Part shown: one piece after another, positions 1,879 through 16,382 of the stretch
How positions within the stretch are numbered: position 1 is the first letter of the stretch
Layout of the letters: each line of letters begins with the position of its first letter
Source: a virus
Lineage: Duplodnaviria > Heunggongvirae > Uroviricota > Caudoviricetes
Direction: 5' to 3' (one strand)
Length of the DNA stretch: 17,345 nucleotides
IMG/VR virus record: IMGVR_UViG_2713897073_000004
Notes under the pieces: model-generated
Database searches by the model: none
Told to the model about the DNA's origin: nothing
Seen by the model: only the letters and a program-made list of their open reading frames with translations
Position numbers and translations under genes: made by a program

Positions 1879-2628
1879 ACAATAAGACTAACATCTATAA
1901 TACTAATAATAAAACTAACTATTAAACTATATAATATAATTCTTTTTATTTTTATAAGAATAATTATAGGGATACCCGTTAGGAAGTCTTCGAATATCCC
2001 TTAATCTATTGGCATTCGCCAGAACCTTGCACAAGTTAGAGTGTTAGTCGTTAGACTGCTTGTCATAACACATAGTTTTTGTTTGTTGATGTTAGTTAGT
2101 AGATCTATGTTCGCTAATACCGCTCACAACGAATATGTAATCTACTATGTGCAATAACCTTGTGTGCTACGCATTAGCGATGTTAGCACATAGACACAGA
2201 CAACAACCAACAACAAACAAAAAAGAATGGTTTTAGTAGTTGAAGGTTAAATAAGATTCTACCGCTTAAATCAAGCCGTAGGCGAGCTAAACGTATATAA
2301 GGTAGGGAAACACCTTAGCGGTAATAGATTAGCTCGTTATAGAGCTTCTGAGGAGCTTTACAGGTATTTTATAAGATGTCTGAAATCATAGTTTATCTAT
2401 CCACCATCTTTCCATCACCTGATAAATCAAAAATAAGCCCCTTAAATAAACCTCTGACGAGATAAACAGCCATTAGATAAGGCAATGTATTGCTTTTATC
2501 AAAACTTCGTTAGAACGCGTTTTAGAGCGTTTTAGACAATAATGAAGAATAGCACTACACAGGAGAGCACGAATTGCTAAGAAAAAATGTAAGTACATGA
2601 AAAAGATCAGATTTTTTATGAAAAGGTA

Positions 2629-2657
2629 TTGACAAACGTCTCTTTCTGTGCAATAAT
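2629..2657 (+). promoter_or_regulatory. sigma70-type promoter for the small-gene operon
   Basis: TTGACA (2629-2634), 17-nt spacer, AATAAT (2652-2657); consensus -35, 5/6 -10, optimal spacing; about 125 nt upstream of the first operon gene. Confidence 0.5.
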
Positions 2658-2781
2658 AGGTATTAGAGGGACAGGAATAGATTCTTATCCTCTAAATAAT
2701 TAAACCAATGCACCGCACTTTGAAGCCCAAGGCTTGCAAGGTGTTTTTTCTTTTAACCAAATAGAATAAGGAGGCTAATTA

Positions 2782-2958
2782 ATGAAATATTTTACTCCAC
2801 AGGATGTAGTAGAAGCCTGGAAACGTGGTGAGATCAACCGCTTTAAAGTAAGGATGTATAGAAACACCGCTCGCCGTTGTGGTTATCCAGAGCGTGAAAA
2901 ATGTTTTGACGATGCACTGAAAATTATTGATGAACTGCGTAAAGCTGAGAAAGAATAA
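2782..2958 (+). CDS. hypothetical small protein (58 aa), first gene of the AT-rich operon
   Basis: ATG 2782 preceded by AAGGAGG (2768-2774, 7-nt spacer); MKYFTPQDVVEAWKRGEINRFKVRMYRNTARRCGYPEREKCFDDALKIIDELRKAEKE, stop TAA 2956-2958. Not in the ORF track (under 60 aa). The minus-strand track ORF 2779-3012 is its antisense shadow. Confidence 0.6.
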   Translation: MKYFTPQDVVEAWKRGEINRFKVRMYRNTARRCGYPEREKCFDDALKIIDELRKAEKE

Positions 2959-2980
2959 TAGACAAGAGAAGGAGAAAACT

Positions 2981-3148
2981 ATGAGCGAAACCAAGAAACC
3001 AATTCCACGCACTTACCTACACGTTGACCCTGAAATTTTCAAGATTTTATTTTCTGAAGCCAAGAAAAGGCAAGTTATGGTCAGTGATTTGATGTTAGAA
3101 ATCATTACTGAAGCAGCAGAGAACATCAAACAAAAAAAGGGTAAGTGA
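2981..3148 (+). CDS. ribbon-helix-helix (CopG/Arc/MetJ-like) DNA-binding protein, 55 aa
   Basis: Start at the internal ATG 2981 of track ORF 2927-3148, with GAAGGAGA 5-6 nt upstream. MSETKKPIPRTYLHVDPEIFKILFSEAKKRQVMVSDLMLEIITEAAENIKQKKGK shows a beta-strand (RTYLHVD), helix A, short turn, helix B pattern typical of RHH proteins. Fold call is from pattern only. Confidence 0.5.
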   Translation: MSETKKPIPRTYLHVDPEIFKILFSEAKKRQVMVSDLMLEIITEAAENIKQKKGK

Positions 3149-3201
3149 TCCTCATTCACTTTAGTAGCGCATTAAGCGTGATTTATAAGGAGATAATTCT
3201 A

Positions 3202-3882
3202 ATGTCTAAAATTAAATTGATTCGTGAAAAACACCAGTATGTTGATAAACAAACAGGAGAAATTAAAGACCGAACTTTGAATATACCGCATTACTTTTGT
3301 GAGATTGAATTCATCTACTCCTCAAATATTGAGGATGGAAGAGCGAAGTTTAGTGCAGAAATGCAAAAATTATATTGCTATGTTTCAGATTGGGAGAAAT
3401 CAGGGGGGATATGTTTTGAAACACAAACGAAGTTAAGTAAGGTTTGTGGCTGTAGCCGTAAGACAGTTAATGAATTGATTGGTCTTATGATTAAAATCGG
3501 TCTTTTAGAAGAGGTCGGAGAACGAATCCCAAAACGTCCATTAAAATTACGTGCGCTACCTCTCACAGATGCACATATTACTCCCCCTAGAGAGTCATCA
3601 CTACCTGATCCTTCTGAGAAAGAAGACGAATCTAATGAAATATTGAATGTTTCCGAAATCATCCTTGAAGAAGAAACACAGGAATCAGCGTTCCCTGAGC
3701 GGCCCGAAATTTTTACTTGGCTTCTTTCCCTTGATAAGAAGAAACCACCGCACGAAGAAACAGAAGATTTTGTAAAACGTGTATTAGATTCAAAGAATAT
3801 CTATCTTGAGAAACAGGCTTTTCACGATCTGATAATATCTCTAAGAGAAAAAAGTGAAATATACGATTCGATACCCTTCTAG
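3202..3882 (+). CDS. winged-helix DNA-binding protein, HTH_36-like (replication-initiator/regulator type) with acidic C-terminal region
   Basis: Start at MSKIKLIRE (ATG 3202, AAGGAG 9 nt upstream); the track ORF starts earlier at 3145 with no RBS. KLYCYVSDWEKSGGICFETQTKLSKVCGCSRKTVNELIGLMIKIGLLEEV matches the HTH_36 pattern seen in phage/plasmid replication-initiation proteins. C-terminal half is E/D/P-rich. Confidence 0.55.
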   Translation: MSKIKLIREKHQYVDKQTGEIKDRTLNIPHYFCEIEFIYSSNIEDGRAKFSAEMQKLYCYVSDWEKSGGICFETQTKLSKVCGCSRKTVNELIGLMIKIGLLEEVGERIPKRPLKLRALPLTDAHITPPRESSLPDPSEKEDESNEILNVSEIILEEETQESAFPERPEIFTWLLSLDKKKPPHEETEDFVKRVLDSKNIYLEKQAFHDLIISLREKSEIYDSIPF

Positions 3883-3894
3883 GAGAATAAATAA

Positions 3895-4164
3895 ATGACT
3901 TATAACATCACTATAGGAAACAAAACTATTGAAATAACTGAAAGCGGATACAACATTTTAAAAGCTATTTTGGAAATAGAGTTTTCACCACCGACAGTGG
4001 TTAGCTTTTGCAGCTTAGGTTGCTACAGCACCCAACATGTGAACAATTGGTTAAGCCATTTTACATCGTTCGGTGTGCTGGATTATGAAGGGATTAACAG
4101 CACTACATTTCGTCTTTTGAAATTAAACAAAGATTTTGAATTGTTTATCACAAACAATCAATAA
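3895..4164 (+). CDS. hypothetical protein (89 aa)
   Basis: ATG 3895 with AGGAGA 8 nt upstream; 13 nt after the preceding stop; same strand and tight spacing as neighbours. Confidence 0.5.
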   Translation: MTYNITIGNKTIEITESGYNILKAILEIEFSPPTVVSFCSLGCYSTQHVNNWLSHFTSFGVLDYEGINSTTFRLLKLNKDFELFITNNQ

Positions 4165-4260
4165 CAACAGATCGGGCAATACATATGGCAAATGCATTTA
4201 TGGCGATATTCATCGTAACTATGGCATTCAGTTTTTATAATCCACATAAAAAGAGGGAAA

Positions 4261-4644
4261 ATGGGAAGAAAGAAAAAGAACAACTTAAAACGTATTGAAA
4301 AAAACAGTAATTTCAATTCAACAAGACAACGTCCACCGACACACACCAATAACGAAATTCCAGGGGAAGAGATAATCTTTATTCTTGAAACAGAATCCCC
4401 TGAATTAAGTGATCAAGAATTAGAAATAATCCAGTCAATGCCAGGCGTTTACTTTCGCCCAAGAACAAGGAAACAAACTATCATTTCTGATGGCACTCTG
4501 AAACGTTGGCAGCTTTTAGGGTTTAGCTCCTATCATCATTTTTTGGGATTTAACGCTTTCAATAATTGTGTAGGTGGTGCATCGGAAGTCGATCTGATGG
4601 CTCATTTAGAAGATACATTAGCTTCTAACAAACGTTCTAACTAA
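4261..4644 (+). CDS. hypothetical protein (127 aa), basic N-terminus
   Basis: ATG 4261 preceded by AAAAAGAGGGAAA; N-terminus MGRKKKNNLKRIEKN is highly basic. Confidence 0.55.
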   Translation: MGRKKKNNLKRIEKNSNFNSTRQRPPTHTNNEIPGEEIIFILETESPELSDQELEIIQSMPGVYFRPRTRKQTIISDGTLKRWQLLGFSSYHHFLGFNAFNNCVGGASEVDLMAHLEDTLASNKRSN

Positions 4645-4702
4645 TAAAAATGATGGGCGTATGTATAAGCGCCCAATGAAAATATTCAATAAAGGAAAAA
4701 TA

Positions 4703-4933
4703 ATGATTAACTATCAACTATTAGAAACAACATTTTTTAAAGAAGCAAAACAACTTGCAGAAGTGTTTATTTCACTGGCTGAACGAGCAAAAGAAGAAAA
4801 TGATTTTGCCTTGCTTGATGATGTGCTGGATGACATTGCAACCTATCGTATACCGCTACAGATTGCACTAAACAAGGCTAAACAGATTCAGCAAGAGATG
4901 GAATCAGCAGATCAAGGAGAGATTGCACAATGA
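4703..4933 (+). CDS. hypothetical helical protein (76 aa)
   Basis: Start taken at internal ATG 4703 (MINYQLLETTFF...), preceded by AAAGGAAAAA; the track ORF begins at 4661 with no RBS. Stop overlaps the next start (ATGA). Confidence 0.5.
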   Translation: MINYQLLETTFFKEAKQLAEVFISLAERAKEENDFALLDDVLDDIATYRIPLQIALNKAKQIQQEMESADQGEIAQ

Positions 4934-5241
4934 CAGACAACATTCTGGAAGTTATGGACACTCTTTCGGATCGGATGATCACCCTACAGACACGTATCAA
5001 TCAAGCCTATTCAGATTTATGCGATTACACGCTCTCTCAATGCGTAATTAGCTTAATGAAGGTGAATGTAAGCCTTGACGATTTTATCTCTCTGGTGAGC
5101 GATTTAGAGCAGCTATCTGAGGACGATGCCAAGATGTGCACTCAAACCATCACAGACACCGCCAGCACGTTAAAGGCTGCAAGTGAAGAGATTCAGCAAT
5201 TAGTAGATGATTTAGCAAAAAGTGCTATTTTCTCTAAATGA
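4930..5241 (+). CDS. hypothetical acidic helical protein (103 aa)
   Basis: ATG 4930 overlaps the upstream stop in ATGA (translational coupling); last gene of the AT-rich operon. Confidence 0.55.
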   Translation: MTDNILEVMDTLSDRMITLQTRINQAYSDLCDYTLSQCVISLMKVNVSLDDFISLVSDLEQLSEDDAKMCTQTITDTASTLKAASEEIQQLVDDLAKSAIFSK

Positions 5242-6205
5242 TAATGAAAATCATTTGCATTTATAATGATTTTGTTATATAATAATTTTAGGGGTAGATA
5301 AAAAGGTTTTGACTGGTGTTAATCCTTTTCCTGTCATAAATCCCTGCATATGGAAGGTGATAGCCTCAAGGGTTGAGTGGCATTAACCTCTAACAAATAT
5401 TACCTTCCATCTCTCAAGAAGTTTTAGAATAATCATAACTCCCTCTTTGATTGTTGATTGTTTCTACGTTGTGTTGATGAATGTTGTTAGGCATTGTGCT
5501 TAATTTTGATAAAAGCGGGTAGGTGTTATCTCCTTGCCCTTCTCGCTCTTATTTTTCATCTGTGCTTATCCTAAAGCTCCTTATTTTGTCCGAAAACATT
5601 AAAGAGCCTTACACTGATAGTTATATTTTATAACTATTTACTAACATCACTAAACTCATTATTTAATGACAGAAGTTAGTAACAGAATAATCTATTAAGT
5701 TGTTGTCAAAAACAATCATCTGCATAGCGTTAGCCGCAAGCAGAGAGAGTTTAACTAAGAATGGAAGTATTGATAAGTATACCAGTTTACAAAAAAGATT
5801 TTTTCTAAATTGCAAATTCTTTCCAAAGCGGTAGATTACTGTGGTGTAGTTAATCCCTATTAAAATTTAATCTGTGAGTAGATTGGAATAGTGATTCCTT
5901 AAAATCTGACTGGTGCATCCACACCATGAAAGATAGCGGTTTAGCCCACCGCAACCAGAATATCAGGTCTTAGTGATTCCAGTGGGGCAACTCCTAAGAG
6001 CCTTTCTTCTAAGATCTGATATTCACTCTTTAAGCATATCATCAAGTATATTTAAAAAGTGTATTTGCTGATATGTTTAATCCTCTTATAGTTTAACTTA
6101 TCAATTATGTAATTGCCCGCACGTTAAAGCCCCTTTGCTGGTCAGAATTAACCTCTTACGGCATTGGGGCTTTTTATTTGTCTGGCACTAACAGGAACGT
6201 TATTT

Positions 6206-6403
6206 ATGAAACAAGAAATGATTATCAGCAAAGACGGGGAAACGATGATTGTTAGTGATGAAAACCTCATTAAGGTTGCCGCACTGTTGGGAGTTACTCC
6301 TGAAAGTCTTCATTCTACCACTGCTCAATTATTTAAATCGGCTGATGCGGTTAGTCTTGCTGATGCCCTTAAATCTAAAATTAAACAACTGAAAGGAAAA
6401 TAA
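6206..6403 (+). CDS. hypothetical protein (65 aa), first gene of cargo operon
   Basis: Start taken at ATG 6206 (MKQEMIISKDGE...), with AGGAA about 9 nt upstream; the track start at 6164 lies inside a GC hairpin/T-run and lacks an RBS. Confidence 0.5.
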   Translation: MKQEMIISKDGETMIVSDENLIKVAALLGVTPESLHSTTAQLFKSADAVSLADALKSKIKQLKGK

Positions 6404-6407
6404 TCTT

Positions 6408-6791
6408 ATGGCTAACCCATATGGAAAATTAAAAGCAGTGAATGCGGATAATTCCCGTTCACGCTGTAAGGTAGTAGCTTACGCTGCTGATCCAGTGCTG
6501 CAAGATCGCCTCGTCAAACTGGCTTCACCTCTCACTGACGATCTTATTGTCGGGGCTTTGCTGAAAGCCGATGGCACCAAAGCAACAACCGCATCTGATA
6601 TTGCTCACGTAGTAGTTGAACCGGCTTATGAAGGACAGGAAAGCGTAGTGGTTGCACATCCTACTTTCGTTATTCTGGCTGAAGATGGGATTGAATTTAA
6701 CAGCATGGAAAAGGCAAGTGTTATTGCAAAACTGCAATCTCTCGGCTTTGTAATTGCTGGTTATGAAGAACTTGCGATCCCTACGACTTAA
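6408..6791 (+). CDS. hypothetical protein (127 aa)
   Basis: ATG 6408 with AAAGGAAAA upstream, 4 nt after the previous stop; codon usage is more balanced than in the AT-rich operon. Confidence 0.65.
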   Translation: MANPYGKLKAVNADNSRSRCKVVAYAADPVLQDRLVKLASPLTDDLIVGALLKADGTKATTASDIAHVVVEPAYEGQESVVVAHPTFVILAEDGIEFNSMEKASVIAKLQSLGFVIAGYEELAIPTT

Positions 6792-6805
6792 CAAGGAAAA
6801 TAATA

Positions 6806-7837
6806 ATGAATGATTTATCAACATATTTTGGCGTTAATACTGCGGTAGTAACTCCATTTGCTTATGAGAATGCACTTAATACCCTGATTACTAATCTCGA
6901 TCTGTTCGATGTGCAATATCATACAGAAAACAGCATTCTTCTTACCGACCTGATTGATCAGTTTGTGCAGGTAGCTGGGGAAACCTCGCCTTACACTCAA
7001 AGCAGCTGGAACGCCTCTAAACGTCAGGAATGGTCAAACAAACTTTTCCAGATGAAGCACGTCGGCAGTATTAACGCTGTTACTTCTCGTGACCTGGAAC
7101 AATACAGCCGCCAATATCCAAACCGTTCTGATGCTATGCTGGTAGCGGTTAATGATTTCTCTGAGGCTCATTACCGTTCACACGCAAACCGTGTTGAAGT
7201 GGATCTGATTACCGCGCTGCTGGGACTGAAAGTTGAATCTGAATATGCCGGACAAGGTGATCTCGACTTCCTCGACGGTCAGGCTAAAACCACGGTACCC
7301 GCTATCGACTTTGCATCGACTAGTGTTAACCCGTTCCTTGCTATTCGTAAAGCGGTGCGCTTACAGAGTGAAAAGCTGGGGTCTGGTCTTGCTGCAAAGC
7401 GAACTGGTGTAATTATCTTTGCTGCTGGCGCTGCTGCTGATGGTTTGTCATCTAACCCGCTGATCAGTGACATGGTGAAATATGCAGGTGATGCGAGTGC
7501 TACGGCCCTGTTTACCCGTATGGTTGATTCTAACCCAGCCTATGACTCTTTCCAGATTGGTGGGATCACTGTTATTGATGTGTCAATGTTTCCTGAGATT
7601 GTTGCTCACATCGGAGAGAACGGTTTCGCAATTGTTCCGGTAATGGATAAGTCGGCACAGTGTTACCAGCTTCATAGCGGCGTTGGTGTGCGTCATGCTG
7701 AGTTAGGTCAAGATGCCGTGTTACATCACCAATATCTAATCAAGGATGAATTCCAATTCCCATCTGTGGTTACTGAGACATCTTATCTGCCAGTAAACAA
7801 CATTCCGCAAGCTATCATCTTCGGATCTGCTGCGTAA
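6806..7837 (+). CDS. hypothetical protein (343 aa), no recognisable catalytic motif
   Basis: ATG 6806 with CAAGGAAAA upstream; long clean ORF 14 nt after the previous stop. No Walker, HUH or nuclease motif found by eye. Confidence 0.75.
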   Translation: MNDLSTYFGVNTAVVTPFAYENALNTLITNLDLFDVQYHTENSILLTDLIDQFVQVAGETSPYTQSSWNASKRQEWSNKLFQMKHVGSINAVTSRDLEQYSRQYPNRSDAMLVAVNDFSEAHYRSHANRVEVDLITALLGLKVESEYAGQGDLDFLDGQAKTTVPAIDFASTSVNPFLAIRKAVRLQSEKLGSGLAAKRTGVIIFAAGAAADGLSSNPLISDMVKYAGDASATALFTRMVDSNPAYDSFQIGGITVIDVSMFPEIVAHIGENGFAIVPVMDKSAQCYQLHSGVGVRHAELGQDAVLHHQYLIKDEFQFPSVVTETSYLPVNNIPQAIIFGSAA

Positions 7838-7977
7838 TAAAGCATTAATAGACGATTCCCCATAGGGGCAATAAGGTAAGGGATAATCATATAAGTAAAA
7901 TATGCGCTGTCTCTTGCCCTTATTTTTTTTCTACTGTCTACAGACCCAAATAAAAATATATATGTGAGAGAAAACCA

Positions 7978-8190
7978 ATGAACGCAGAAAATTCACAGGC
8001 ATTAATTCTTAAATCTGTAAAAGAACTGGCAGCTATTAGCGAGGAATCAGTTATAAACACATCGGCGCTTTGCCGCCTTTTAGAAATTGATGCAAATAAT
8101 GTGCGGCAGCGTGTGTTTCAGACTGGATGCAGCACTTTTGAAGCAATTGCATACTACTGTTCTAAAAACAATAACAAACAACAATTATAA
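7978..8190 (+). CDS. small putative HTH protein (70 aa)
   Basis: ATG 7978; segment NTSALCRLLEIDANNVRQRV looks like a helix-turn-helix; sits directly upstream of the 613-aa gene. Confidence 0.5.
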   Translation: MNAENSQALILKSVKELAAISEESVINTSALCRLLEIDANNVRQRVFQTGCSTFEAIAYYCSKNNNKQQL

Positions 8191-8208
8191 TGCAGGGAAA
8201 CTATTAGA

Positions 8209-10050
8209 ATGCTTGAAATTAATGCCGCACGTATCTCGAACGTTATAACATTTACGACCGACTCCAAAAGCTTACAGAAAGCTAAGAATGAAGTAGAAAA
8301 ACTTCGTAAACAAATGGCGGCGGTGAAAGATATAGAATTGCGTGTTAAGACACATAAACAATCAACCGCTAAAGCAAAAAAAGACGTAGACGATATTGCT
8401 AAAAAGCAAGCACAGGCAGATAAAGCCAATGCTAAAGCACAATTAGCCGCTCAACGTGTAGTTGCAAGAGAACAAAAAGCCCTGGCAGCACGGAAAGAGA
8501 AGGCTGAATTAAAGCTTTTAGACGTTGGAGCAAGCATTAGCGCATTGCACCGTCTTTCTGTAGCGGAACAATATAAAGCTATTGCACAGGCTAGAGAAAT
8601 TGCCCTCCAATATGAAAGAGGCGCTATTAGTCTGGCACGTATGAATAGCCAAATGAAACGCCTACAACAGCAACAACGTAAGATTAATGGCAATCGTAAC
8701 GCTCACGCTAAAGCCTATGCACCTGTTAAGGGTAGCGGGAGTATTGGCGGCGGTGCTGCGGCTGTTATGCTGGGCGGCTTAGGCGCTGGCGCTGCATATA
8801 TGGCTATGAGCAAAGCCTCTGAATTTGTTACTAACAGCTTTGCGAATGCTGAAACGCTGGGTGAATTGTATAGCCGTGCCAAGCTGGGCGGTGTAGACGT
8901 TAACCAGATGAACAATATTGAGCAATGGGCGTATAAAAACGGCGTTGATTCAATGATGGGCGAACAAGGTAAACGTAAGTATCTCGATCAGATGAAAGAT
9001 GTGCGTGAACGTGCAACCAAATCTTATGATGAAGCTGAATATGTAGTTGATAAGAAAACTGGTAAAGGAGAATGGAAGGGCGGCGATAGCGGCATCAATA
9101 CTTTAATGAATGAAGGATTCCTAACTAAAAAGGATCTAAAAGACTTTGCTGATAATCCGGCTGGTCTGGTTAGTAAAGCAGTTCAGGGAATGGTAGCTAA
9201 AGGCTATTCAGATGCACAAATCGGTAGTCGTCTGGAAGATCTGGCTGATGATTTGATGCTCACCTCTAAATACTGGACACGCTCCGCTAAAGAAGTGGAA
9301 CAATCAGCACGAGAACAACGAGAATCAGGGCGCTGGGTAACACAGGCACAACAGGAAAGCGTTATTAAATTCCGTGAACTGAATAATGCACTTAGTGGGC
9401 TTTCTGACTCACAAGGGATCGCCTTTGTTGATGGCTTTATGAAATCTCTTGATCCGAAAGTGATTGAAGAGTTTAAAAAGAGCATGGTTGCAATGCTGCC
9501 AATGTTTACCAAATTAGGCGAGGCTGTAGGTGGTCTGCTTAATGCGATCATGAAAACTATCAACTGGCTGATGAAAAACGACGAGAAGACGGCAGCTATT
9601 CAGAAGAATTTAGGTGATGCACCGCCACTATCTAACGAAGGAATGAAGCAGAATCTTTCTAATCTCACTCCTGATCAATATAAAGGCGCTGGCACCGGAA
9701 CAATTAAGCCAGATAACAGCAATTCCCTGGTTAACACTATTAAAAGCTGGTTTATGCCAGAAGAAACGGTAGGTGGGGCACAGGCTGTAAATCAATACAG
9801 TCTCGAAGGACAAAACATTGCAAATCTGAAACAGAGTGCAGCACAACAAGCTTTCAAGGCTCCTTCTTACACCTTTGCACCTGTTATTAACTTCAATCCA
9901 GAATTACAAGTAAATGCAGAAGTGCCGCTAACTATCGAATCAGACACCGGACGATTGAGCGAATTTATCGACTTCAAATCAAAGGCATCTTCCGCTGAGT
10001 TTAGCAAGCTATTAACGCTTGGTGTTATGTCAGGCGGGTCAACCTATTAA
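8209..10050 (+). CDS. large hypothetical protein (613 aa): N-terminal K/A/Q-rich coiled coil, glycine-zipper hydrophobic segment, large C-terminal domain
   Basis: ATG 8209 with AGGGAAA upstream. Residues about 20-165 are K/A/Q/E-rich heptad-like sequence; residues about 175-201 are GSGSIGGGAAAVMLGGLGAGAAYMAMS (nt about 8731-8811), a Gly/Ala-rich membrane-type segment; the remaining roughly 400 aa are mixed. Composition recalls tape-measure or pilot/ejection proteins, but no homology is established. Confidence 0.8.
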   Translation: MLEINAARISNVITFTTDSKSLQKAKNEVEKLRKQMAAVKDIELRVKTHKQSTAKAKKDVDDIAKKQAQADKANAKAQLAAQRVVAREQKALAARKEKAELKLLDVGASISALHRLSVAEQYKAIAQAREIALQYERGAISLARMNSQMKRLQQQQRKINGNRNAHAKAYAPVKGSGSIGGGAAAVMLGGLGAGAAYMAMSKASEFVTNSFANAETLGELYSRAKLGGVDVNQMNNIEQWAYKNGVDSMMGEQGKRKYLDQMKDVRERATKSYDEAEYVVDKKTGKGEWKGGDSGINTLMNEGFLTKKDLKDFADNPAGLVSKAVQGMVAKGYSDAQIGSRLEDLADDLMLTSKYWTRSAKEVEQSAREQRESGRWVTQAQQESVIKFRELNNALSGLSDSQGIAFVDGFMKSLDPKVIEEFKKSMVAMLPMFTKLGEAVGGLLNAIMKTINWLMKNDEKTAAIQKNLGDAPPLSNEGMKQNLSNLTPDQYKGAGTGTIKPDNSNSLVNTIKSWFMPEETVGGAQAVNQYSLEGQNIANLKQSAAQQAFKAPSYTFAPVINFNPELQVNAEVPLTIESDTGRLSEFIDFKSKASSAEFSKLLTLGVMSGGSTY

Positions 10051-10097
10051 TCATCACTGTGGGGCTGTTTAGCCCCCTTAAATAAGGATTACAAATT

Positions 10098-10775
10098 ATG
10101 GCAATGGGTCCGTTAACCATTGGTCGCCCGACTGAGGCGAAAATCAACAGCACAAGCAACGATAGCAACGGTAGAACAACTAAAGGGGGTAACGGCTTTG
10201 CGATCATTACCTCTAATCTCGGCAGTGGTGCAAATGCTGCTTACAATGACTACCAGGCATTATCATTTGATAGCGTGGAATCGACGAGAGTTAGCAGAAA
10301 TGCAGACGTTACAAGCTATGCTGTCGAATCAGGATCAGAAGTTAGTGATCATGTTCAAATACGGAATAACAAGTTCACATTACAAGGGCGTATCTCTGAA
10401 ACCGTATTGAAGCTCAATCCTGATATGATTAAGAATGCTGGAATTAACGGCAATCGACGTATGCTTATGCTTGAATACCTAAATCAGTTGATGGACAGTC
10501 GCCAACCTTTCCTACTTGTCACTGAGTTAAAAAATTATGACAACGTTGTGTTAGTTGGCATGTCTTACGCAGAAGAAGCAAGCGAAAGCCTATTGTTTAC
10601 TCTTGATTTTGAGCAAATCCGTCTTGTCTCTAAAGCAACTACAAGCGCAATTGCGGTAAAAACAGCACCAAATAAATCTGTAGGAGGCCAGGTTAAAATG
10701 CAGGTAAATACAACAGAACAGAAAAATCAAAAAAGCCCAGGGCAAGACGTTGTAACGCCAGTATTTAAACAATAG
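10098..10775 (+). CDS. hypothetical protein (225 aa), S/T/N/G-rich N-terminus
   Basis: ATG 10098 with AAGGA upstream; last gene of the cargo operon; the overlapping alternate-frame track ORF 10120-10410 is rejected. Confidence 0.7.
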   Translation: MAMGPLTIGRPTEAKINSTSNDSNGRTTKGGNGFAIITSNLGSGANAAYNDYQALSFDSVESTRVSRNADVTSYAVESGSEVSDHVQIRNNKFTLQGRISETVLKLNPDMIKNAGINGNRRMLMLEYLNQLMDSRQPFLLVTELKNYDNVVLVGMSYAEEASESLLFTLDFEQIRLVSKATTSAIAVKTAPNKSVGGQVKMQVNTTEQKNQKSPGQDVVTPVFKQ

Positions 10776-10816
10776 CCTTAAACGCCTATGAAACGCTCTG
10801 TAACGAGATAATCATA

Positions 10817-10848
10817 AAAGAGGCATCAGCCTATATTGAAGCCTCTTT
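10817..10848. terminator. hairpin between convergent genes; candidate bidirectional terminator
   Basis: AAAGAGGC (10817-10824), 16-nt loop, GCCTCTTT (10841-10848), between the cargo operon end (10775) and the integrase stop (10856); A/T-rich on both flanks. The loop is large, so stability is uncertain. Confidence 0.35.
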
Positions 10849-10855
10849 ATTACGT

Positions 10856-12133
10856 CTATAGCGTTGTTTTACGCCTTAAATTTGATTTTTTATTGATTGA
10901 TAAGCCTTTCTCTATTTCAGGATAGCGTAAAAGCTCAATATATTTTTTAAGCTCTACTGGAGAAGCTGCATTTTTGCTATATGTGCGGAATGTTTCTGTA
11001 TTGCCGCGTGTATGGCCCAGGAGAAGGGCGATCCTGTCTTCTGGAATTTGATTTCGATCAAGAAGCTGTGCTACTCCGTGTCTCAGAGAATGAAACACTT
11101 TCCTTTCTGTTCCCTTTTCCCCTAAAGCCTTTCGTTTAGCTCTTGTAAATCGTTGTGTATGCCACGTAGAGCGTTTACCGTCAGCACGCTCTGTAATGCT
11201 GGCGTGATAGAACAAAAAGCCATTGTGAGGCTTTTCACGAAGAGATAACACCAATGGAGTGATAAGGCTATGCACAGGCACAAGACGTGCCGCAGCTTTC
11301 GTTTTTCCCTGTGTGATTTCAAAACACAGCACACCTTCGATCTCTTTCACATCGTCTATTGTGAGACTTGCTATCTCATTGATCCGCATCCCTGTATATA
11401 AACCGATAAGACATAAAGCCGTCATTTCTTTGTTTTCTGCTGAATTACCGGAAAATACTTGCAACACCTGCAATAGCTCTTTGTTAGAAAATGCCTCGTA
11501 GCTCTCTCTACTTTGTGCCACATCAAGCCTATGCCCTCGCCAGGGGGAGAGCGCCCTTTCTGGCGCATCGTGGTAACGTGATGAAGCTAATTCCCATAGC
11601 TGGGCCATTGGGCTGATATAATTTGCAATTGATTGTTGTGAAAGAGTTTTTTGCATGTGTTCAATCCAGCCTGTAACAGTGGTGCGGCTTACATCTTGCA
11701 ATGCAATATCAGGCTTTTTACGGTAGGAGAGAAACATCTCTACCGCTTTTCTTGCCTTAGCTAAAGTGGCTGGCTTCTTCTTCGTGCTGTTAATTGTCAG
11801 GTAGATTTCAAGAATTTTAAGCAATGACGGACACGAAGACGCTGTATCTTGCATTCTGGTAGCTGTTTTGGCGTATTTAGCCTTACTGCGTAACAGTTCC
11901 AGCGTGTTTTCTATTGTGCTGTTTACAGGGGCAACACTCTCCCGTAAGCAATGGTATTCATCTGCAATCTGATCACGCTTTCTACGTGCAACACGAAGAT
12001 TACTTGTGTGCAGACTTCTGACAAACGTCCTTTTTCCTTCAAAAAAGGGCTGCATATACACAGGCAGCGTGATCCTTAAATAGTAGTTACCGTAAGAATC
12101 ACAGATTAAGTATTGGTTAGGCTTGTATCTCAT
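10856..12133 (-). CDS. tyrosine site-specific recombinase/integrase with DUF6538-like N-terminal domain
   Basis: Catalytic signature of tyrosine recombinases: TGMRINEIASL (Arg), VFHSLRHGVAQLL (HxxR), LLGHTRGNTETFRTYS (His...Tyr). N-terminus YLICDSYGNYYLRITLP...GKRTFVRSLHTSN fits the YYFRRR-type arm domain. Start placed at the internal ATG 12133 (GGAG 5 nt upstream); the track start at 12190 has no RBS. Confidence 0.85.
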   Translation of the reverse strand: MRYKPNQYLICDSYGNYYLRITLPVYMQPFFEGKRTFVRSLHTSNLRVARRKRDQIADEYHCLRESVAPVNSTIENTLELLRSKAKYAKTATRMQDTASSCPSLLKILEIYLTINSTKKKPATLAKARKAVEMFLSYRKKPDIALQDVSRTTVTGWIEHMQKTLSQQSIANYISPMAQLWELASSRYHDAPERALSPWRGHRLDVAQSRESYEAFSNKELLQVLQVFSGNSAENKEMTALCLIGLYTGMRINEIASLTIDDVKEIEGVLCFEITQGKTKAAARLVPVHSLITPLVLSLREKPHNGFLFYHASITERADGKRSTWHTQRFTRAKRKALGEKGTERKVFHSLRHGVAQLLDRNQIPEDRIALLLGHTRGNTETFRTYSKNAASPVELKKYIELLRYPEIEKGLSINKKSNLRRKTTL

Positions 12134-12310
12134 AAAATCTCCGGCTAAAGTGTCGGAGCGTTTGTAATGTGAAAATTGATTGTGACGCATAGAAAATGAT
12201 TATTTTTCTATAAGATTCAATCAATTAGTAATGGTCGTAGTGATGGCATTAACACGAGATTAATCGAGTGTTTTACTCCTATTATCGGCACCATTCAAAC
12301 ATCTCCCCAA

Positions 12311-12396
12311 GTCTACTAAAGTCTTTCAAAACCCCTTATAATCCACGTATTAAAGCCCCGTTCGTCTTTTGACGTCTACTAAAGTCCCTCAAAATC
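12311..12396. repeat. pair of 23-bp direct repeats between the two integrase genes; candidate att core or integrase arm sites
   Basis: GTCTACTAAAGTCTTTCAAAACC (12311-12333) and GTCTACTAAAGTCCCTCAAAATC (12374-12396): 20/23 identical, first 13 nt exact, 63 bp apart. Confidence 0.6.
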
Positions 12397-12458
12397 TACG
12401 GTCAGATGGGGGTACTTATGGGGGTATTTGCTGTTCGGTTTAGTGGAGGTACCCCCAA

Positions 12459-13673
12459 GTGAAACTCAATGCCCGTCAAATAGACACAGCCAAGCCAAAA
12501 GAGAAGGCTTACAAGCTGGCCGATGGTGGCGGTTTGTATCTCTTGGTAAAACCTAATGGAGGTAAATACTGGCGACTTAAATATCGTGTAGCAGGTAAAG
12601 AGAAGCTATTGGCACTAGGTGTGTATCCTGAGGTTACTCTAGCCGATGCTCGGGCAAAACGTGAAGATGCGAAAAGAGGTATCGCTGGTGGTATCGATCC
12701 GATGGAAGCGAAACGAGAGGAAAAGATTGCCCGGGAAACGCAGTTAAACAACACCTTCAAAGATATTGCCCTTGAGTGGCACAGCAGCAAATTAAAAAAA
12801 TGGTCTGCTGGTTATGCTTCAGACATCCTCGAAGCCTTCAACAAAGATGTGTTCCCTTACATTGGCAAAAAACCAATCGCCGAAATCAAACCACTTGAAC
12901 TTCTGAATGTGCTGCGGCGCATCGAGGGGCGCGGTGCGACAGAAAAAGCCAAAAAAGTGAGGCAGCGGTGCGGGGAAGTTTTCCGCTATGCAATAGTCAC
13001 TGGTCGCGCAGAGTATAACCCTGCACCAGACCTTACTAGCGCGATGCAAGGCCATGAATCTAATCATTACCCTTTCCTTACGACCAAAGAATTACCTGAT
13101 TTTTTCAAGGCATTATCCAGTTACTCAGGAAGCGCATTGGTTGTTATGGCGGCTCGCCTACTGATTATCACCGGCTTGCGAACTGGCGAACTACGTGGCG
13201 CATTATGGGATGAAATTGATTTCAACAAGGCTATATGGGAGATACCCGCTTCACGTATGAAAATGCGGCGGCCTCATATTGTGCCATTGTCTGAGCAGGC
13301 TCTTTCGCTTATTGGGAAGATTAGAGAAATAACAGGCAATTACCCTCTTATGTTTCCCGGGCGCAATGATCCAAGGAAAACAATGAGTGAGGCCAGCATA
13401 AACCAAGTGTTTAAGCGCATTGGCTACGCTGGACGTGTAACTGGTCATGGGTTCCGACACACTATGAGCACGATTTTGCATGAGCAGGGCTATAACACCG
13501 CGTGGATAGAAACGCAGCTCGCTCACGTTGATAAGAACTCAATTCGTGGCACATACAACCATGCGCAATATCTGGATGGACGGCGGGAGATGCTTCAATG
13601 GTATGCCGACTATATGGATTCTCTCGAGCATGGCGGAAATGTGGTGCATATGGTGTTTGAAAAACACGCATGA
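12459..13673 (+). CDS. int: P4-family tyrosine integrase
   Basis: GTG start 12459 with GGAGG 9 nt upstream. N-terminal arm-binding domain typical of P4-type integrases (AKPKEKAYKLADGGGLYLLVKPNGGKYWRLKYR), catalytic Arg (ITGLRTGELR), HxxR (GHGFRHTMST), and C-terminal LAHVDKNSIRGTYNHAQYLDGRREMLQWYADYMD with the catalytic Tyr. Confidence 0.92.
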   Translation: MKLNARQIDTAKPKEKAYKLADGGGLYLLVKPNGGKYWRLKYRVAGKEKLLALGVYPEVTLADARAKREDAKRGIAGGIDPMEAKREEKIARETQLNNTFKDIALEWHSSKLKKWSAGYASDILEAFNKDVFPYIGKKPIAEIKPLELLNVLRRIEGRGATEKAKKVRQRCGEVFRYAIVTGRAEYNPAPDLTSAMQGHESNHYPFLTTKELPDFFKALSSYSGSALVVMAARLLIITGLRTGELRGALWDEIDFNKAIWEIPASRMKMRRPHIVPLSEQALSLIGKIREITGNYPLMFPGRNDPRKTMSEASINQVFKRIGYAGRVTGHGFRHTMSTILHEQGYNTAWIETQLAHVDKNSIRGTYNHAQYLDGRREMLQWYADYMDSLEHGGNVVHMVFEKHA

Positions 13674-13980
13674 AACAACTGGACAAGTATACAGAGGTTT
13701 ACTAAAGTATAGGGGAGTAGATTGATAAAAACTCACAGAGGATTGCTATTTAACAGTTAGCCTTGGAGAAGGGCAATCGCTCTTTTATAAACGAAGGTGT
13801 ATTGAGCCTTCTACGCTGCTGAAAAGCGGAATGTTCTTTAACAGGCTTTGGCGCTGACAAAGCGCAATTGTTCTTTAAAACTACTGGATGTCACGCCTAA
13901 TAGCGTGATCCTGCCGAAATGCAGGGTAGCTCTACCCTTGTGGAGCAAACAAACCAAAACAATCTGACTATCTTTTATAA

Positions 13981-14013
13981 AAGACCGCAATATGTTTTTC
14001 ATATTGTGGTCTT
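13981..14013. promoter_or_regulatory. inverted repeat upstream of alpA; candidate operator
   Basis: AAGACCGCAATATG (13981-13994), TTTTT, CATATTGTGGTCTT (14000-14013): 14-bp arms, 13/14 complementary, about 90 bp upstream of the alpA start. A second palindrome GGGTAG-CT-CTACCC lies at 13924-13937. Confidence 0.4.
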
Positions 14014-14100
14014 TGGCGTATTCGACATTTGACGCAAATAAAACTCTCGCCATTCGTTGCAGGAGGGGGTTATTGCGTCATTAGTACAGGATATTAATAA

Positions 14101-14304
14101 ATGGCTAATTACAATTCATTAATTCGTCTCTCTGAAGTTCAAAGGCGAACTGGTTATAGCAAAGCATGGATTTATCGTCTTATTAGTCAGGGGAGGTTCC
14201 CTAAACAGGTAAAAATTGGAAGTCGGGCAATTGCTTTTGTTGAGTCTGAAATAGATGAATGGATTGAGAAGTGTATATTAGAATCTAGAGACGAGGTGGC
14301 CTGA
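14101..14304 (+). CDS. alpA: AlpA/Vis-family transcriptional regulator (excisionase-like HTH)
   Basis: 67 aa; LIRLSEVQRRTGYSKAWIYRLISQGRFPKQVKIGSRAIAFVESEIDEWI is the classic AlpA signature; positioned just downstream of a P4-type int, as in P4-like islands. Confidence 0.85.
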   Translation: MANYNSLIRLSEVQRRTGYSKAWIYRLISQGRFPKQVKIGSRAIAFVESEIDEWIEKCILESRDEVA

Positions 14305-14735
14305 TGGAAAAGAAAAACCGCCCATTACAGGCGGCTAATTCAGATATTCGCGTATCTGATGTTACGCCCCTGACAAAATCCCTTCAAGCACCAAAGCGCA
14401 CGCCGAAAAAGCATCGTGCCCGAGTCTATATGCTGCGTACTGGTATAGAGGGATGGACAGAAAATGACATTCTTCGCTACTGCCGTCTGTCTTCTGGTCG
14501 TAACTATGCAACAGAGTTAGAACGCCAGCTTGGAATCACTCTGGAGCGTATCGACGAAAAGAATCCTGATGGTATCGGAACACACCTTCGCTACCGTTTC
14601 TCCTGCCGTGGTGATGTTCTGAAAGTGATCACTCATGTTAACCATCTTGCGAACATAAATGATCACAACGGACTTTCTCAGCAGGAAATTGCCGACATTC
14701 TGAAACTCTACCCGGACGCGTTTAACGCCGCCTAA
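14304..14735 (+). CDS. hypothetical protein (143 aa)
   Basis: ATG 14304 overlaps the alpA stop (TGATG), indicating coupling; basic N-terminus (PKRTPKKHRAR); no motif recognised. Confidence 0.65.
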   Translation: MEKKNRPLQAANSDIRVSDVTPLTKSLQAPKRTPKKHRARVYMLRTGIEGWTENDILRYCRLSSGRNYATELERQLGITLERIDEKNPDGIGTHLRYRFSCRGDVLKVITHVNHLANINDHNGLSQQEIADILKLYPDAFNAA

Positions 14736-14747
14736 CGGAGACTAAAA

Positions 14748-15581
14748 ATGAACATCGAAAAAAGCAGATTAATTTCTGAGGCCGCCCCTCATCTGAACGC
14801 CTCTCTGGGCACAATTAACGGTAATGAATTTGCCGCAATTGTCCCGGTTATTTCTGGTCATATAGGCGGGCGTGAAACCAATATTGTTAGCGCAAAAGCG
14901 TTACACAAAGCGTTGGGCGTGGGAAAAGACTTCTCTACATGGATCACTGATCGCATCTCTGAATATGACTTCACCATTGGGCACGATTACTCAGTCCATA
15001 AAACAATTTCCCCAAATTTGGGGAAAAGCCCGAATGACGCGGCTTACAGCAAGATTAAGCAGTCTGGCAGACCCGGCAAAGACTATCTGTTAAGTGTCGG
15101 AATGGCGAAAGAACTGGCAATGATCGAACGCAATGATCAGGGTCGCGCTATCCGCCGTTATTTCATCCAGTGCGAGAAAGAATTACAGCGTAGCGTGCCT
15201 GAAATCGCCGCCCGCTATCGTCGCCAGCTAAAAGCCCGTATCAGTGCCGCAAACAACTTCAAGCCAATGTGCGATGCGCTGAATATGGCCCGTGCCGAGA
15301 TGGGGAAAACGACGCAGCAACACCACTACACAAACGAGAGCAATATGATTTCTCGTATCGTTCTTGGTGGGCTAACTGCTAAGCAGTGGGCGCGGATAAA
15401 TGGCTATTCTGGCGAACCTCGCGACCATATGAACGCAGAACAGCTTGAGCACCTCTCATATCTCGAAAGCACCAATATCACGTTAATTGATATGGGCATG
15501 GAATATGAGCAGCGCAAAGGAGAACTCACCCGCCTGTCGCAACGCTGGCTCGCCAAGCGTCTGGAGGCGGTCCATGTTTAA
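14748..15581 (+). CDS. putative antirepressor, AntA/AntB- or KilAC-like (277 aa)
   Basis: ATG 14748 with ACGGAG upstream. Segments FSTWITDRISEYDFTIGHDY and GKDYLLSVGMAKELAMIERNDQGRAIRRYFIQCE resemble phage antirepressor domains. Family assignment is from remembered motifs, not a search. Confidence 0.6.
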   Translation: MNIEKSRLISEAAPHLNASLGTINGNEFAAIVPVISGHIGGRETNIVSAKALHKALGVGKDFSTWITDRISEYDFTIGHDYSVHKTISPNLGKSPNDAAYSKIKQSGRPGKDYLLSVGMAKELAMIERNDQGRAIRRYFIQCEKELQRSVPEIAARYRRQLKARISAANNFKPMCDALNMARAEMGKTTQQHHYTNESNMISRIVLGGLTAKQWARINGYSGEPRDHMNAEQLEHLSYLESTNITLIDMGMEYEQRKGELTRLSQRWLAKRLEAVHV

Positions 15582-15756
15582 GCCGACAGGAACACCACAA
15601 CCTCAAAAACGCTACAAAGATGCCCACGGAGCACTCGTTACTGTCGAAAGCGTGTCTCACAACCGAGTGACGTTTTATCGCGACGGGTATCAATCGCCAT
15701 GCGTACAACCGCTGGCACGTTTCATGAAGGAGTTCGCGGAGGTTAACAAATGCTAA
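15574..15756 (+). CDS. hypothetical small protein (60 aa)
   Basis: Start taken at internal ATG 15574 (MFKPTGTPQPQKRYKDAHGALVTVESV...), which overlaps the AntA-like stop by 8 nt. The track ORF 15487-15756 extends upstream inside the preceding gene and is rejected as an N-terminal extension. Confidence 0.5.
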   Translation: MFKPTGTPQPQKRYKDAHGALVTVESVSHNRVTFYRDGYQSPCVQPLARFMKEFAEVNKC

Positions 15757-16382
15757 CCGCCCAGAAGAAGATATTTTCACTGGCTGGTATGTCGCCAAAA
15801 TCCAGCAATATGACAGCAAAGTCAGACATTAATACAGCAGATACAAGCAAAGTTTATCATTTGCTGGTGGTAGGAGCGGATGCCTTAACTATGTCAGAAA
15901 TTACGGTCGATGGTGTTAGCGTTGAGAAGGTCAGCGGCTATGCCAGAGAATTTCTGGTCGTAGATGACCTGTTCTGCTCGTGTAGTGACTCCACAAAAAC
16001 ATTCGTCCACGCGCGTGACGTTAACGAAATGAGCGCGATGTACTGTGCTTCTGGTTCTTCCAATAGTGAGTTTTCGGAGTCCATAAAAAAGAGCTTGCCG
16101 TTATGCGGCAACACGGTTTATGGTTATAAGGCACCTCATAAAACGGGTGCCGGGATTGGCGTCCTAAAAATTCTGAAGGCGACATATGACGCGCCGAGCG
16201 TCTTTTTTTATGTCGTAGGTCTGACTCACCCATTTTTTGGGCGTTGGTGTATAATCCAGCGCCTTTGTCAATCAATGGTGGCTCAGGCGGGGGCTTCTTC
16301 GGAAGCGCCGGTATCCATTCAGAGCCGGTTACGCCAACCCTGTCTGGGCTACCACCAGCGAAATTGGCGTTTCCGGTGGTAG
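15750..16382 (+). CDS. hypothetical protein; 3' boundary doubtful because the ORF runs through a terminator, a promoter and a structured RNA
   Basis: ATG 15750 overlaps the upstream stop (ATGCTAA), supporting a real 5' end. The last roughly 65 codons (from about 16188) overlap a GC hairpin plus T7 run, a TATAAT box and a stem-loop-rich region, and translate to low-plausibility sequence ([17 protein letters not shown]...RNWRFRW). Confidence 0.4.
16188..16209 (+). terminator. intrinsic terminator-like hairpin plus T-run
   Basis: GACGC (16188-16192), loop GCCGA, GCGTC (16198-16202), then TTTTTTT (16203-16209). Short GC-rich stem directly followed by seven T. Confidence 0.5.
16250..16255 (+). 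promoter_or_regulatory. candidate -10 element (TATAAT) for the leader RNA and downstream operon
   Basis: Perfect TATAAT at 16250-16255, about 40 nt after the terminator T-run; no good -35 hexamer at 16-18 bp spacing, so the promoter call is weak. Confidence 0.3.

Follow-up and report, generated by a model that had tools for sequence, protein, structure and literature searches.

The 613-aa protein encoded at positions 8209-10050 of the window, the whole stretch of 17,345 nucleotides analysed here, belongs by its sequence to the gp134 family, the tape measure proteins (TMPs) of contractile tails like those of phi92 and phAPEC8. Its gene, we infer, resides not in a phage but in an island at thrW that would act as a satellite of virulent myoviruses of the Stephanstirmvirinae (phi92, phAPEC8, inny). 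The probability that the gene provides a satellite tape measure for chimeric tails of the phi92/phAPEC8 type, carried by an undescribed satellite island of E. coli, is put at roughly 60%. If this reading is true, the reprogramming of phage tails by a satellite TMP, which has so far been shown only for the PLE, would extend to E. coli and Klebsiella, and its targets would include phi92, phAPEC8 and their relatives, a group under study for phage therapy.

The tape measure protein

The open reading frame lies on the plus strand, with its ATG at 8209 and the stop codon included at 10050, and RefSeq has the same frame in an identical copy of the sequence. The first-pass annotation had described a 613-aa product with a coiled-coil N-terminal part, a hydrophobic segment and about 400 aa of further sequence; the layout is confirmed here, with a long helical N-terminal region and about 410 residues after the segment. 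For its function it had offered a tape measure, a pilot/ejection protein or a membrane toxin, of which only the tape measure is retained, based on the homology to gp134 and to PHROG 16051. A profile comparison with tape measure families, which it had suggested, matched the family profile of the TMP to phi92 gp134 (PDB 21vq, Phi92_gp134) with an E-value of 6.2e-94. The protein also matches PHROG 16051 (E 2.9e-32 over aa 154-611) and, by BLASTP, gp105 of phage inny (E 6e-27, in pieces spanning aa 1-33 and 84-612). Identity to phage TMPs amounts to 26-30%, with a length of 613 aa against the 659 aa of the phi92 protein.

Three regions are conserved with the phage TMPs. The N-terminal motif MLEIN..I.N.VTF.VD..SL..AK (aa 1-33; 8209-8307) is common to phage TMPs and is 45% identical to aa 1-33 of inny gp105. 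The most conserved central region (GVDS...KDVRER...WKGGD..., aa 229-455; 8893-9573) shows about 30% identity to phage TMPs. At the conserved C-terminal end (aa 566-613; 9904-10047), the motif ...RLS.[FY]IDF....AS...F...LTL...G.S aligns with the C-termini of phage TMPs, and the alignment with its invariant columns makes this end the counterpart of residues 631-656 of phi92 gp134. In the phi92 virion, gp134 has been modelled as a trimeric TMP, with residues 631-656 resolved inside the baseplate (PMC13450770).

Composition, heptad score and AlphaFold2 helices indicate an extended, K/A/Q-rich helical region at aa 19-162 (8263-8694). Residues 20-165 consist of 19% A, 15% K, 11% Q, 9% L, 8% R and 6% E, and only three Pro or Gly are present within residues 1-170. 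The secondary structure predicted by AlphaFold2 is largely helical, with helices at 19-111, 118-136 and 142-162 (pLDDT about 55-81, a moderate confidence for aa 19-162), while the model as a whole is poor with a mean pLDDT of 44 and unsuitable for fold search. Residues 20-165 had earlier been called K/A/Q/E-rich with heptad character; the richness in K/A/Q and the helicity stand, and our own, crude heptad score is 0.5-0.6 over residues 1-100 and does not exceed 0.35 beyond them.

The helical region is followed by a Gly/Ala-rich, uncharged hydrophobic segment at aa 174-201 (8728-8811). Its residues 174-200, GSGSIGGGAAAVMLGGLGAGAAYMAMS, hold the hydrophobicity peak of the TMP (Kyte-Doolittle 1.41 in a 19-residue window), and residues 175-201 form a run of 27 residues without a charge that is rich in small-xxx-small spacings, as had been noticed at first pass. 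One uncharged hydrophobic run alone would not be very unlikely by chance, and the segment is judged real because its position is conserved throughout the family: in 35 of the 39 members, phage and element alike, the most hydrophobic window lies at the equivalent position. In those 35 it is composed of 42-74% Gly, Ala and Ser, and most of them also lack charges over 18 or more residues in a row at this place. As a score of 1.41 falls below the classical threshold of 1.6 for transmembrane helices, insertion of the segment into a membrane is a step that we infer. A segment of this kind after a long helical region would also suit a membrane-targeting toxin or a pilot/ejection protein unrelated to tail length. 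Such a function is scarcely credible, since the same segment is present in the phage TMPs of the gp134 family, the homology to gp134 spans the whole length of the protein, and no similarity to a pilot protein, colicin or other toxin was found in Pfam, PHROGs, NCBIfam, PADLOC or the PDB; in the Pfam, NCBIfam and PADLOC libraries the TMP has no match at all.

The gene block and its island

The TMP gene had been thought to occur without an obvious tail gene set, which is correct for sheath, tube, chaperone, hub, wedge and fibre genes but not for the next gene (10098-10775, plus strand), which encodes a 225-aa Dit-like tail tube initiator homologous to phi92 gp135. This protein matches Pfam PF21821 with an E-value of 1.8e-27 and Phi92_gp135 in the PDB with 4.2e-53, other tube initiators matching more weakly, and is 48-53% identical to the phage proteins. 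In phi92, gp135 is the hexameric tube initiator (PMC13450770). The order of TMP and tube initiator is that of the phages, so that the island resembles the gp134/gp135 pair of phi92 in gene order as well as in the N-terminus, hydrophobic segment, central region and C-terminus of the TMP. The phi92-type phages differ in having chaperone, tube and sheath genes, none of which lies near the TMP gene of the island, and in phi92 the TMP gene belongs to a virulent phage of 148 kb, here to a chromosomal, integrase-bearing island of 12.9 kb.

Upstream on the same strand lies a gene for an HK97-fold major capsid protein of the lambda gpE type (343 aa; 6806-7837). As tblastn against phages gave no match for this gene, its identity rests on PF03864, which is carried by homologues, on a fold search (AlphaFold2 model with pTM 0.65; Foldseek matches to phage capsid proteins with E down to 1e-11) and on hhalign with the major capsid protein of inny (81%). 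It is preceded by a conserved 127-aa protein (6408-6791, plus strand; dN/dS 0.19) in the place and size range of a phage cement protein, as seen from synteny with inny gp95/gp96; no significant sequence similarity was found for it, and the cement-protein label is positional only. A conserved 65-aa protein of the structural block (6206-6403, plus strand) has orthologues in the relatives L010, L014 and L015. Directly upstream of the TMP gene, and in the same position in all lineages, a small conserved HTH-like protein of 70 aa is encoded (7978-8190, plus strand), with sub-threshold matches to HTH domains only. A role of this protein as tail chaperone was rejected, as hhalign with the phage chaperone gave a probability of 0.2%.

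Within the structural region of the presumed helper, the island has counterparts only for the capsid protein, the TMP and the tube initiator. No portal, terminase, tube, sheath, chaperone, hub, wedge or fibre gene was found on it, nor a small terminase or a recognisable packaging site, and the P22 pac sequence is absent from the window. Genes of this block are annotated as ‘hypothetical protein’, ‘flotillin’, ‘TolA’ or ‘SPFH’, labels that the present reading would replace with a function.

The island measures about 12.9 kb (figures range from about 12.4 to 12.9 kb) and lies at the tRNA-Thr gene thrW in E. coli, with 19-bp thrW repeats at both ends. The repeat at the right end, attR (12275-12293), corresponds to the 3' end of the tRNA gene. 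In K-12, thrW is occupied by the cryptic prophage CP4-6. The tyrosine integrase of the island (10856-12190, minus strand) combines DUF6538 and Phage_integrase domains, an architecture also found in the Klebsiella relatives, and a serine recombinase of the resolvase/invertase family (704-1261, minus strand) is annotated as ‘recombinase family protein’. A 226-aa protein (3202-3882, plus strand) resembles HTH_36 and replication-initiator proteins, with matches to replication-initiator PHROGs and a Pfam HTH_36 match below its cut-off. A cluster of about five iteron-like repeats (GTAACGA...TTACA; 1744-1880), located in a non-coding region of 33% GC, is a candidate origin or operator. Another non-coding motif (618-700) has a match of about 80% identity in non-coding DNA of some 60 Phapecoctavirus-like genomes. 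Its suspected place in a terminal repeat or at a pac site of the phages found no confirmation, the end redundancy of the Schickermooser record being only 329 bp long and overlapping the motif in part. P4-like satellites carry psu/sid/delta, alpA and primase genes, and none of these P4-type genes was found in positions 1-12293 of the window. From 12303 onward, the window contains a separate, P4-like island.

Relatives, selection and virulent phages

About 11% of the complete E. coli genomes have relatives of the island, which occur also in Klebsiella/Raoultella; E. coli strains 23CRST007 and E2 are examples of carriers. At about one in nine E. coli genomes, the island could affect the multiplication of phi92- and phAPEC8-like phages on clinical strains. 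The compact gene order is kept in all these bacteria and in other genera. Repeats of a tRNA 3' end flank a related island of 12.36 kb. The Klebsiella-type islands have no tube initiator, which is therefore not essential to the satellite scheme. The L014 contig was considered as a free circle and rejected, as the overlap of its ends is the 3' end of a tRNA gene, the result to be expected from an assembler when an island is integrated between att repeats.

Relatives without an integrase, on the other hand, were found in independent assemblies as circles of 13.66 and 13.82 kb that carry their own helicase-type replication protein. These circular forms could be plain plasmids; they were found neither in PLSDB nor as plasmids among complete E. 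coli genomes. Integrase-less circles of 13.7 kb with a replication protein of their own would fit a plasmid-like element that uses its capsid and TMP homologues independently of phages, for instance in a particle of its own or a tailocin-like device. This is very unlikely, given that no form of the element has tube, sheath, portal, terminase or lysis genes, which implies that no particle could be made without a helper, and that the circular form is missing from finished plasmids.

An exhaustive search for the TMP family gave only 70 representatives. Element TMPs are 613-621 aa long in both known lineages, which share about 27-30% identity, while TMPs of the phage-type clade have 634-668 aa, or 634-659 aa for the clade with phage inny. 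The near-constant length of the element TMPs at such low identity speaks indirectly for a TMP that sits as a trimer in the tube lumen and sets tail length. The dN/dS of the TMP gene is 0.15, with the lowest value of 0.058 over aa 206-455, and the neighbouring genes range from 0.11 to 0.26; by these ratios, all five structural genes are under purifying selection. This speaks against a prophage remnant, in which the genes would survive without present function from a formerly complete, temperate phage related to the phi92-like ones. The location at the CP4-6 site would be in keeping with such an origin, as would the copies of the island that are interrupted by insertion sequences, but intact 613-aa proteins are encoded on many contigs, the compact gene order recurs in several genera and the same block occurs on circular replicons. 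In addition, no temperate phage with the gene block was found among 50,697 phage records, in which the matches are large virulent myoviruses. A mere remnant is thus highly improbable. The IMG/VR matches are prophage-style calls from isolate genomes and not virome particles, and the scan of these calls gave no packaging evidence.

The phage homologues of the virion genes on the island belong to strictly virulent phages of about 147 kb. A stretch of 625 bp of the island is 95% identical to phage inny, where it encodes the DNA-binding end of a nuclease that is built like Odn of ICP1. At the protein level, the N-terminal 130 aa of the 226-aa Rep-like protein are 87% identical to inny gp184. From these sequences, gp184 is a chimeric nuclease that appears to be aimed at the island.

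A satellite model for chimeric tails

Chances are about even that the island represents an undescribed satellite family, widespread in E. coli, Klebsiella and relatives, which exploits phi92/phAPEC8-like myoviruses by bringing its own small-capsid shell and tail core and reprogramming both the head and the tail of the helper, while the phages counter it with an Odn-like nuclease against the satellite origin. The tail core of this family would consist of the tape measure, joined in E. coli only by the tube initiator. In the literature searched, which includes few subscription journals, no description was found of the island or of any satellite of Stephanstirmvirinae or Vequintavirinae.

If the protein behaves as in phi92, three copies of the TMP would reside inside the tail tube, with the C-terminus docked in the core of the baseplate under the hexameric tube initiator. 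On phage infection, the TMP and tube initiator of the island would seed tails on helper baseplates, using the tube and sheath of the helper, and these chimeric tails would be joined to small capsids made of the island capsid protein. The tails could be about 1-2 tube rings shorter than those of the helper, which count 24 rings in phi92. This shortening is uncertain because the deficit of 46 aa falls partly in a Pro/Gly-rich linker, present in phi92-type phage TMPs and missing from the island TMP, that may not contribute to ruler length. After contraction the TMP would be expelled, and its Gly/Ala-rich segment probably helps to form the route of the DNA across the envelope. Having its own TMP may, as suggested by the PLE, allow tails to form while tail assembly of the helper is inhibited, or may avoid blocks to DNA entry. 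If the model is true, the island would be a new route of gene transfer, and E. coli together with BASEL-type or Danish wastewater phages could serve as a tractable system to study what need a satellite has for a TMP of its own and how this is selected over that of the helper.

The same genes might instead serve mainly against phages, with the homologues of TMP, tube initiator and capsid protein acting as dominant-negative decoys that lead to defective tails and heads without transfer of the island. Tail assembly is known to be attacked through the TMP by the defences Tab, Tai and Rta, it is precisely the assembly-nucleating proteins of which the island has diverged copies, and a phage nuclease seemingly aimed at the island would be consistent with any element that harms phages. 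A mere poison, however, would need neither the termini nor the central region nor the overall length of the TMP, all of which are conserved; the integrase, the replication module and the conserved size of 12.4-13.8 kb are those of transferable satellites, and there is no PADLOC match. A purely defensive role is accordingly considered unlikely, and as interference and transfer coexist in known satellites, it overlaps in part with the satellite model more than it is a true alternative to it.

The satellite tape measure proposed here has its closest parallel in the PLE, satellites of the virulent Vibrio cholerae myovirus ICP1 that encode their own TMP, a chaperone and sometimes a hub protein (PMC12987554), and form chimeric tails shortened by 10 nm (Nature 2026, PMC12987554). 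Both are small elements whose TMP is diverged and shorter than that of the helper, a presumed one in the case of the island, and which also carry a protein of the baseplate core. In both, the helper has a chimeric nuclease with the DNA-binding domain of a satellite Rep protein, namely Odn in the ICP1/PLE pair and gp184 in the inny/island pair. The PLE have their own tail chaperone, of which the island has none, and their baseplate partner is a hub, whereas that of the island is a tube initiator. Furthermore, the PLE remodel the coat protein of ICP1 with the scaffold TcaP, while the island brings a capsid protein of its own. The bacteria and phages involved are different.

Other satellites share single features with the island. 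The cf-PICIs encode a full head module of capsid protein, portal, protease/scaffold, connectors and small terminase. Like the island, they are chromosomal islands of Enterobacteria with an HK97-fold capsid protein of their own, but of the head module only the capsid protein was found on the island. Putative tmp genes have been reported for some cf-PICIs (PMC12987554, Extended Data Fig. 10). Ccm of SaPIbov5 is a satellite homologue of the major capsid protein of the helper and works together with it (PMC8569155), a likeness that concerns the capsid gene of the island and not its TMP. A TMP gene and altered tail length are also described for the EPIP satellites of Mycolicibacterium (bioRxiv 2025, PMC12822802), which differ from the island in their siphovirus-type helpers, much longer and variable tails, another gene set and a serine integrase.

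Tape measure protein and tube initiator

The open reading frame at 8209-10050 (+), noted in the first-pass annotation, is real and encodes a 613-aa protein; it is also present in RefSeq, in an identical copy of the region. Its product is almost certainly a tape measure protein (TMP). A Pfam search with it gave no match, and PHROGs family 16051 (“tail length tape measure protein”) matches it with an E-value of 2.9e-32. The phage relatives found by tblastn are all about 30% identical and come nearly all from myoviruses of about 145-150 kb of E. coli, Klebsiella and relatives; those which are annotated carry the label tape measure protein. The homolog in phage inny (Justusliebigvirus) is gp105 (659 aa), whose gene follows those for sheath, tube, and chaperone and precedes the baseplate genes. 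BLASTP aligns residues 1-33 (45% identical) and 84-612 with gp105, so that the C-terminus, the central region, and the hydrophobic segment all fall within the aligned parts. When the element proteins are combined in a profile, it matches PDB chain 21vq_V (Phi92_gp134) with E 6.2e-94. In phi92, gp134 is the trimeric TMP, with residues 631-656 resolved within the baseplate, gp135 is the hexameric tube initiator, and 24 tube/sheath rings make up the tail (PMC13450770). Next to the TMP gene on its downstream side, 10098-10775 encodes a protein with the Pfam domain Dit_like that matches Phi92_gp135 (E 4.2e-53), its weaker profile matches being other tube initiators. The PHROG assignment, the phage gene order, and the gp134/gp135 matches together identify the pair as TMP and tube initiator. 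The 613-aa protein is a member of the gp134 family and by itself an ordinary TMP homolog.

The earlier interpretation, which had offered tape measure proteins, pilot or ejection proteins, and membrane-targeting toxins side by side, is partly supported: PHROG 16051 and the Phi92_gp134 homology single out the first, and for the others no match turned up in Pfam, PHROGs, NCBIfam, PADLOC, or PDB. The same annotation saw no obvious tail gene set, which holds for tube, sheath, chaperone, hub, wedge, and fibre genes, none of which were found among the island genes (nor were portal, terminase, protease, connector, or lysis genes), but not for the tube initiator gene adjoining the TMP gene.

The architecture described there is confirmed. 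In residues 20-165 the prevalent amino acids are A, K, Q, L, R, and E, and Pro and Gly are nearly absent. AlphaFold2 places helices at 19-111, 118-136, and 142-162 with moderate confidence in a model that is poor as a whole (mean pLDDT 44). The hydrophobic segment GSGSIGGGAAAVMLGGLGAGAAYMAMS lies at residues 174-200 inside a 27-residue uncharged run and is the most hydrophobic window of the TMP, with a Kyte-Doolittle score of 1.41. It may insert into a membrane; its score is below the classical transmembrane threshold of 1.6. In 35 of 39 relatives hydrophobicity likewise peaks at the equivalent position, in a segment of the same kind, which makes it a conserved feature rather than a product of chance.

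An island at thrW with its own capsid protein

The TMP gene resides on an integrative island of about 12.9 kb at the tRNA-Thr gene thrW, and the window begins about 600 bp inside it. The left part holds a Rep-like HTH protein, small orphan genes, an iteron-like repeat cluster, and a serine recombinase, while the right end is formed by a tyrosine integrase and a 19-bp copy of the thrW 3' end (12275-12293). In strain E2, a 12.4-kb island between thrW and yagP is bracketed by the identical 19-bp repeat. The iteron-like cluster (1744-1880; about five copies of GTAACGA...TTACA) lies upstream of the Rep-like gene within a 1.5-kb non-coding region of 33% GC. In K-12 (292322-297096), the integrase gene intF adjoins yagP at the same locus, at the right end of the cryptic prophage CP4-6; the cargo there differs (yagK-yagN), with no DNA similarity to the window by megablast.

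Upstream of the TMP gene lies the gene of a 343-aa capsid protein, whose relatives of 41-48% identity have PF03864 (lambda gpE-type capsid protein). A model of the 343-aa protein (pTM 0.65) resembles HK97-fold capsid proteins, with E-values down to 1e-11, and hhalign (81%) points to a remote relationship with the capsid protein of inny. A 127-aa protein gene sits where phages have the cement protein, an assignment by position only, as no similarity to the phage cement protein could be demonstrated. Between capsid and TMP genes, an HTH-like 70-aa protein (7978-8190) is conserved in every lineage at 62-70 aa, with counterparts in the same interval of the circular form (L010:9166-9366) and of Klebsiella-type islands (L014:8920-9111, L015:11143-11331). 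Comparison with the tail chaperone led to the rejection of that role; a protein of this size at this position is reminiscent of small regulators, of DNA binders like the small terminase, or of the 80-aa Rta of PLE11.

A P4-like island (12303-17345) follows in tandem. It contains a P4-type integrase (12459-13673), an AntA antirepressor, an Ash-family protein, a C4 antisense RNA (16271-16359), and an isrK RNA (16131-16208). As it stands at the same thrW-derived att repeat, two different satellite-like elements are adjacent here. Within its Ash-family reading frame, 102 bp (15898-15999) share 89% identity with the beginning of P22 gene 3 (small terminase), where one P22 record annotates the pac site; a search of the window for the P22 pac sequence gave no match.

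Three forms of the island

Of 5,426 complete E. coli genomes, 614-628 contain island relatives, and 139 have most of the island. The majority of listed clusters, from E. coli, E. albertii, and Shigella, have an intact TMP of 613-615 aa. The island appears to be a common, unannotated, satellite-like TMP carrier. In Klebsiella, Raoultella, and other genera, islands keep the same order of small protein, 125-aa protein, capsid protein, small protein, 615-621-aa TMP, and integrase, without a tube initiator gene; one measures 12.36 kb between its tRNA repeats. Islands of this type include L014 (L014:3002-3670) and L015-L017. L014 has in addition a Dam methylase and another integrase-like gene, which is short. 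With 36.5% identity to the TMP of inny and 27% to that of the E. coli island, its TMP is nearer to the phage protein.

A third form lacks the integrase and is represented by circles of 13.66 and 13.82 kb with different break points from independent samples (L010, 13,846 nt; L011, 13,685 nt; L013; also L012). Its replication protein is of the helicase type (492 aa, P-loop/helicase-like, ending in an HTH), and directly after the tube initiator stands a superinfection-immunity-like gene (PF14373); this form was found neither in PLSDB nor as a plasmid among complete E. coli genomes. A comparison of the window with this form gives dN/dS values of 0.15 (TMP) and 0.11-0.26 (other structural genes), indicating purifying selection. 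The capsid gene is only 56% identical between the window and L010 and the TMP 88%; judged by sequence, the structural block is mosaic. The first 35 TMP codons (8209-8313 against L010:9385-9489) have a dN of 0.35 with saturated dS, compared with a dN of 0.03-0.20 in the rest of the gene, so that the gene start is far more diverged than the remainder.

The TMP family has only 70 members at E <= 0.001 among 1.84 billion representative proteins. In a simple tree, most of whose representatives are unassigned as to phage or element origin, the Klebsiella-type proteins (615-621 aa) are sister to the clade that includes inny, whose members measure 634-659 aa and mostly have a Pro/Gly-rich linker; the E. 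coli-type TMPs (599-622 aa) form a separate clade. The two element types are almost equal in length despite about 27-30% identity, which is consistent with a ruler function.

Presumed helper phages and a possible chimeric tail

All virion-gene homologs of the island come from virulent Stephanstirmvirinae and related phages, the presumed helpers. We give a probability of about 0.6 to an explanation in which the island is a satellite of such a phage and its TMP and tube initiator would nucleate tails from helper parts. These tails would be slightly shorter than those of the helper, the 46-aa difference corresponding, at 1.5 Å per residue, to about 7 nm (1-2 of 24 rings), although part of it falls in a linker that may contribute nothing to the ruler. 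A role in DNA delivery is conceivable for the hydrophobic segment. Direct precedent comes from the PLE satellites of the Vibrio cholerae phage ICP1, which encode their own TMP, chaperone, and sometimes hub protein; these replace those of ICP1 in PLE particles, and tails are 10 nm shorter for a TMP 95 aa shorter (PMC12987554). PLE11 encodes an 80-aa inhibitor of the helper TMP, and putative tmp genes in other satellites have been remarked on (PMC12987554); mycobacterial satellites with a TMP are reported in a preprint. In contrast to PLE, the island has its own capsid protein, lacks a chaperone, and pairs its TMP with a tube initiator. As far as tested it does not count as a relative of PLE, nor does it fit the cf-PICI or P4-like types. 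A literature search of incomplete coverage found no published description of this island, so its novelty is not proven.

The island also shows signs of an arms race with coliphages that are being explored for therapy. Positions 2969-3593 are 95% identical in DNA to inny and take in the N-terminal 130 aa of the Rep-like protein, which share 87% identity with the N-terminal end of inny gp184 (L002:3233-4336; MN850601 119446-120549). To this part gp184 adds another HTH domain and then a nuclease domain (PHROG “endonuclease”, E 3.9e-18; Pfam MUG113, GIY-YIG-related, at its cut-off). Among 50,697 phage records, such a gene is complete only in inny and partial in muut. ICP1 Odn, an origin-directed nuclease against PLE, bears the DNA-binding domain of the PLE replication protein (PMC8263062), and gp184 has the same architecture of satellite-Rep DNA-binding domain plus nuclease. 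By this analogy gp184 is possibly an anti-satellite nuclease, with the iteron-like cluster as candidate replication origin and candidate target.

The non-coding stretch 618-700 is about 80% identical to unannotated non-coding sequence of about 60 Phapecoctavirus-like genomes and may be a signal, taken over from the helper, for packaging, replication, or regulation. No tie to a phage genome end could be established for this motif. Its phage counterpart often lies near the start or end of the record, and a core of about 30 nt is present again in L010, of the circular form, and in L014, of the Klebsiella type.
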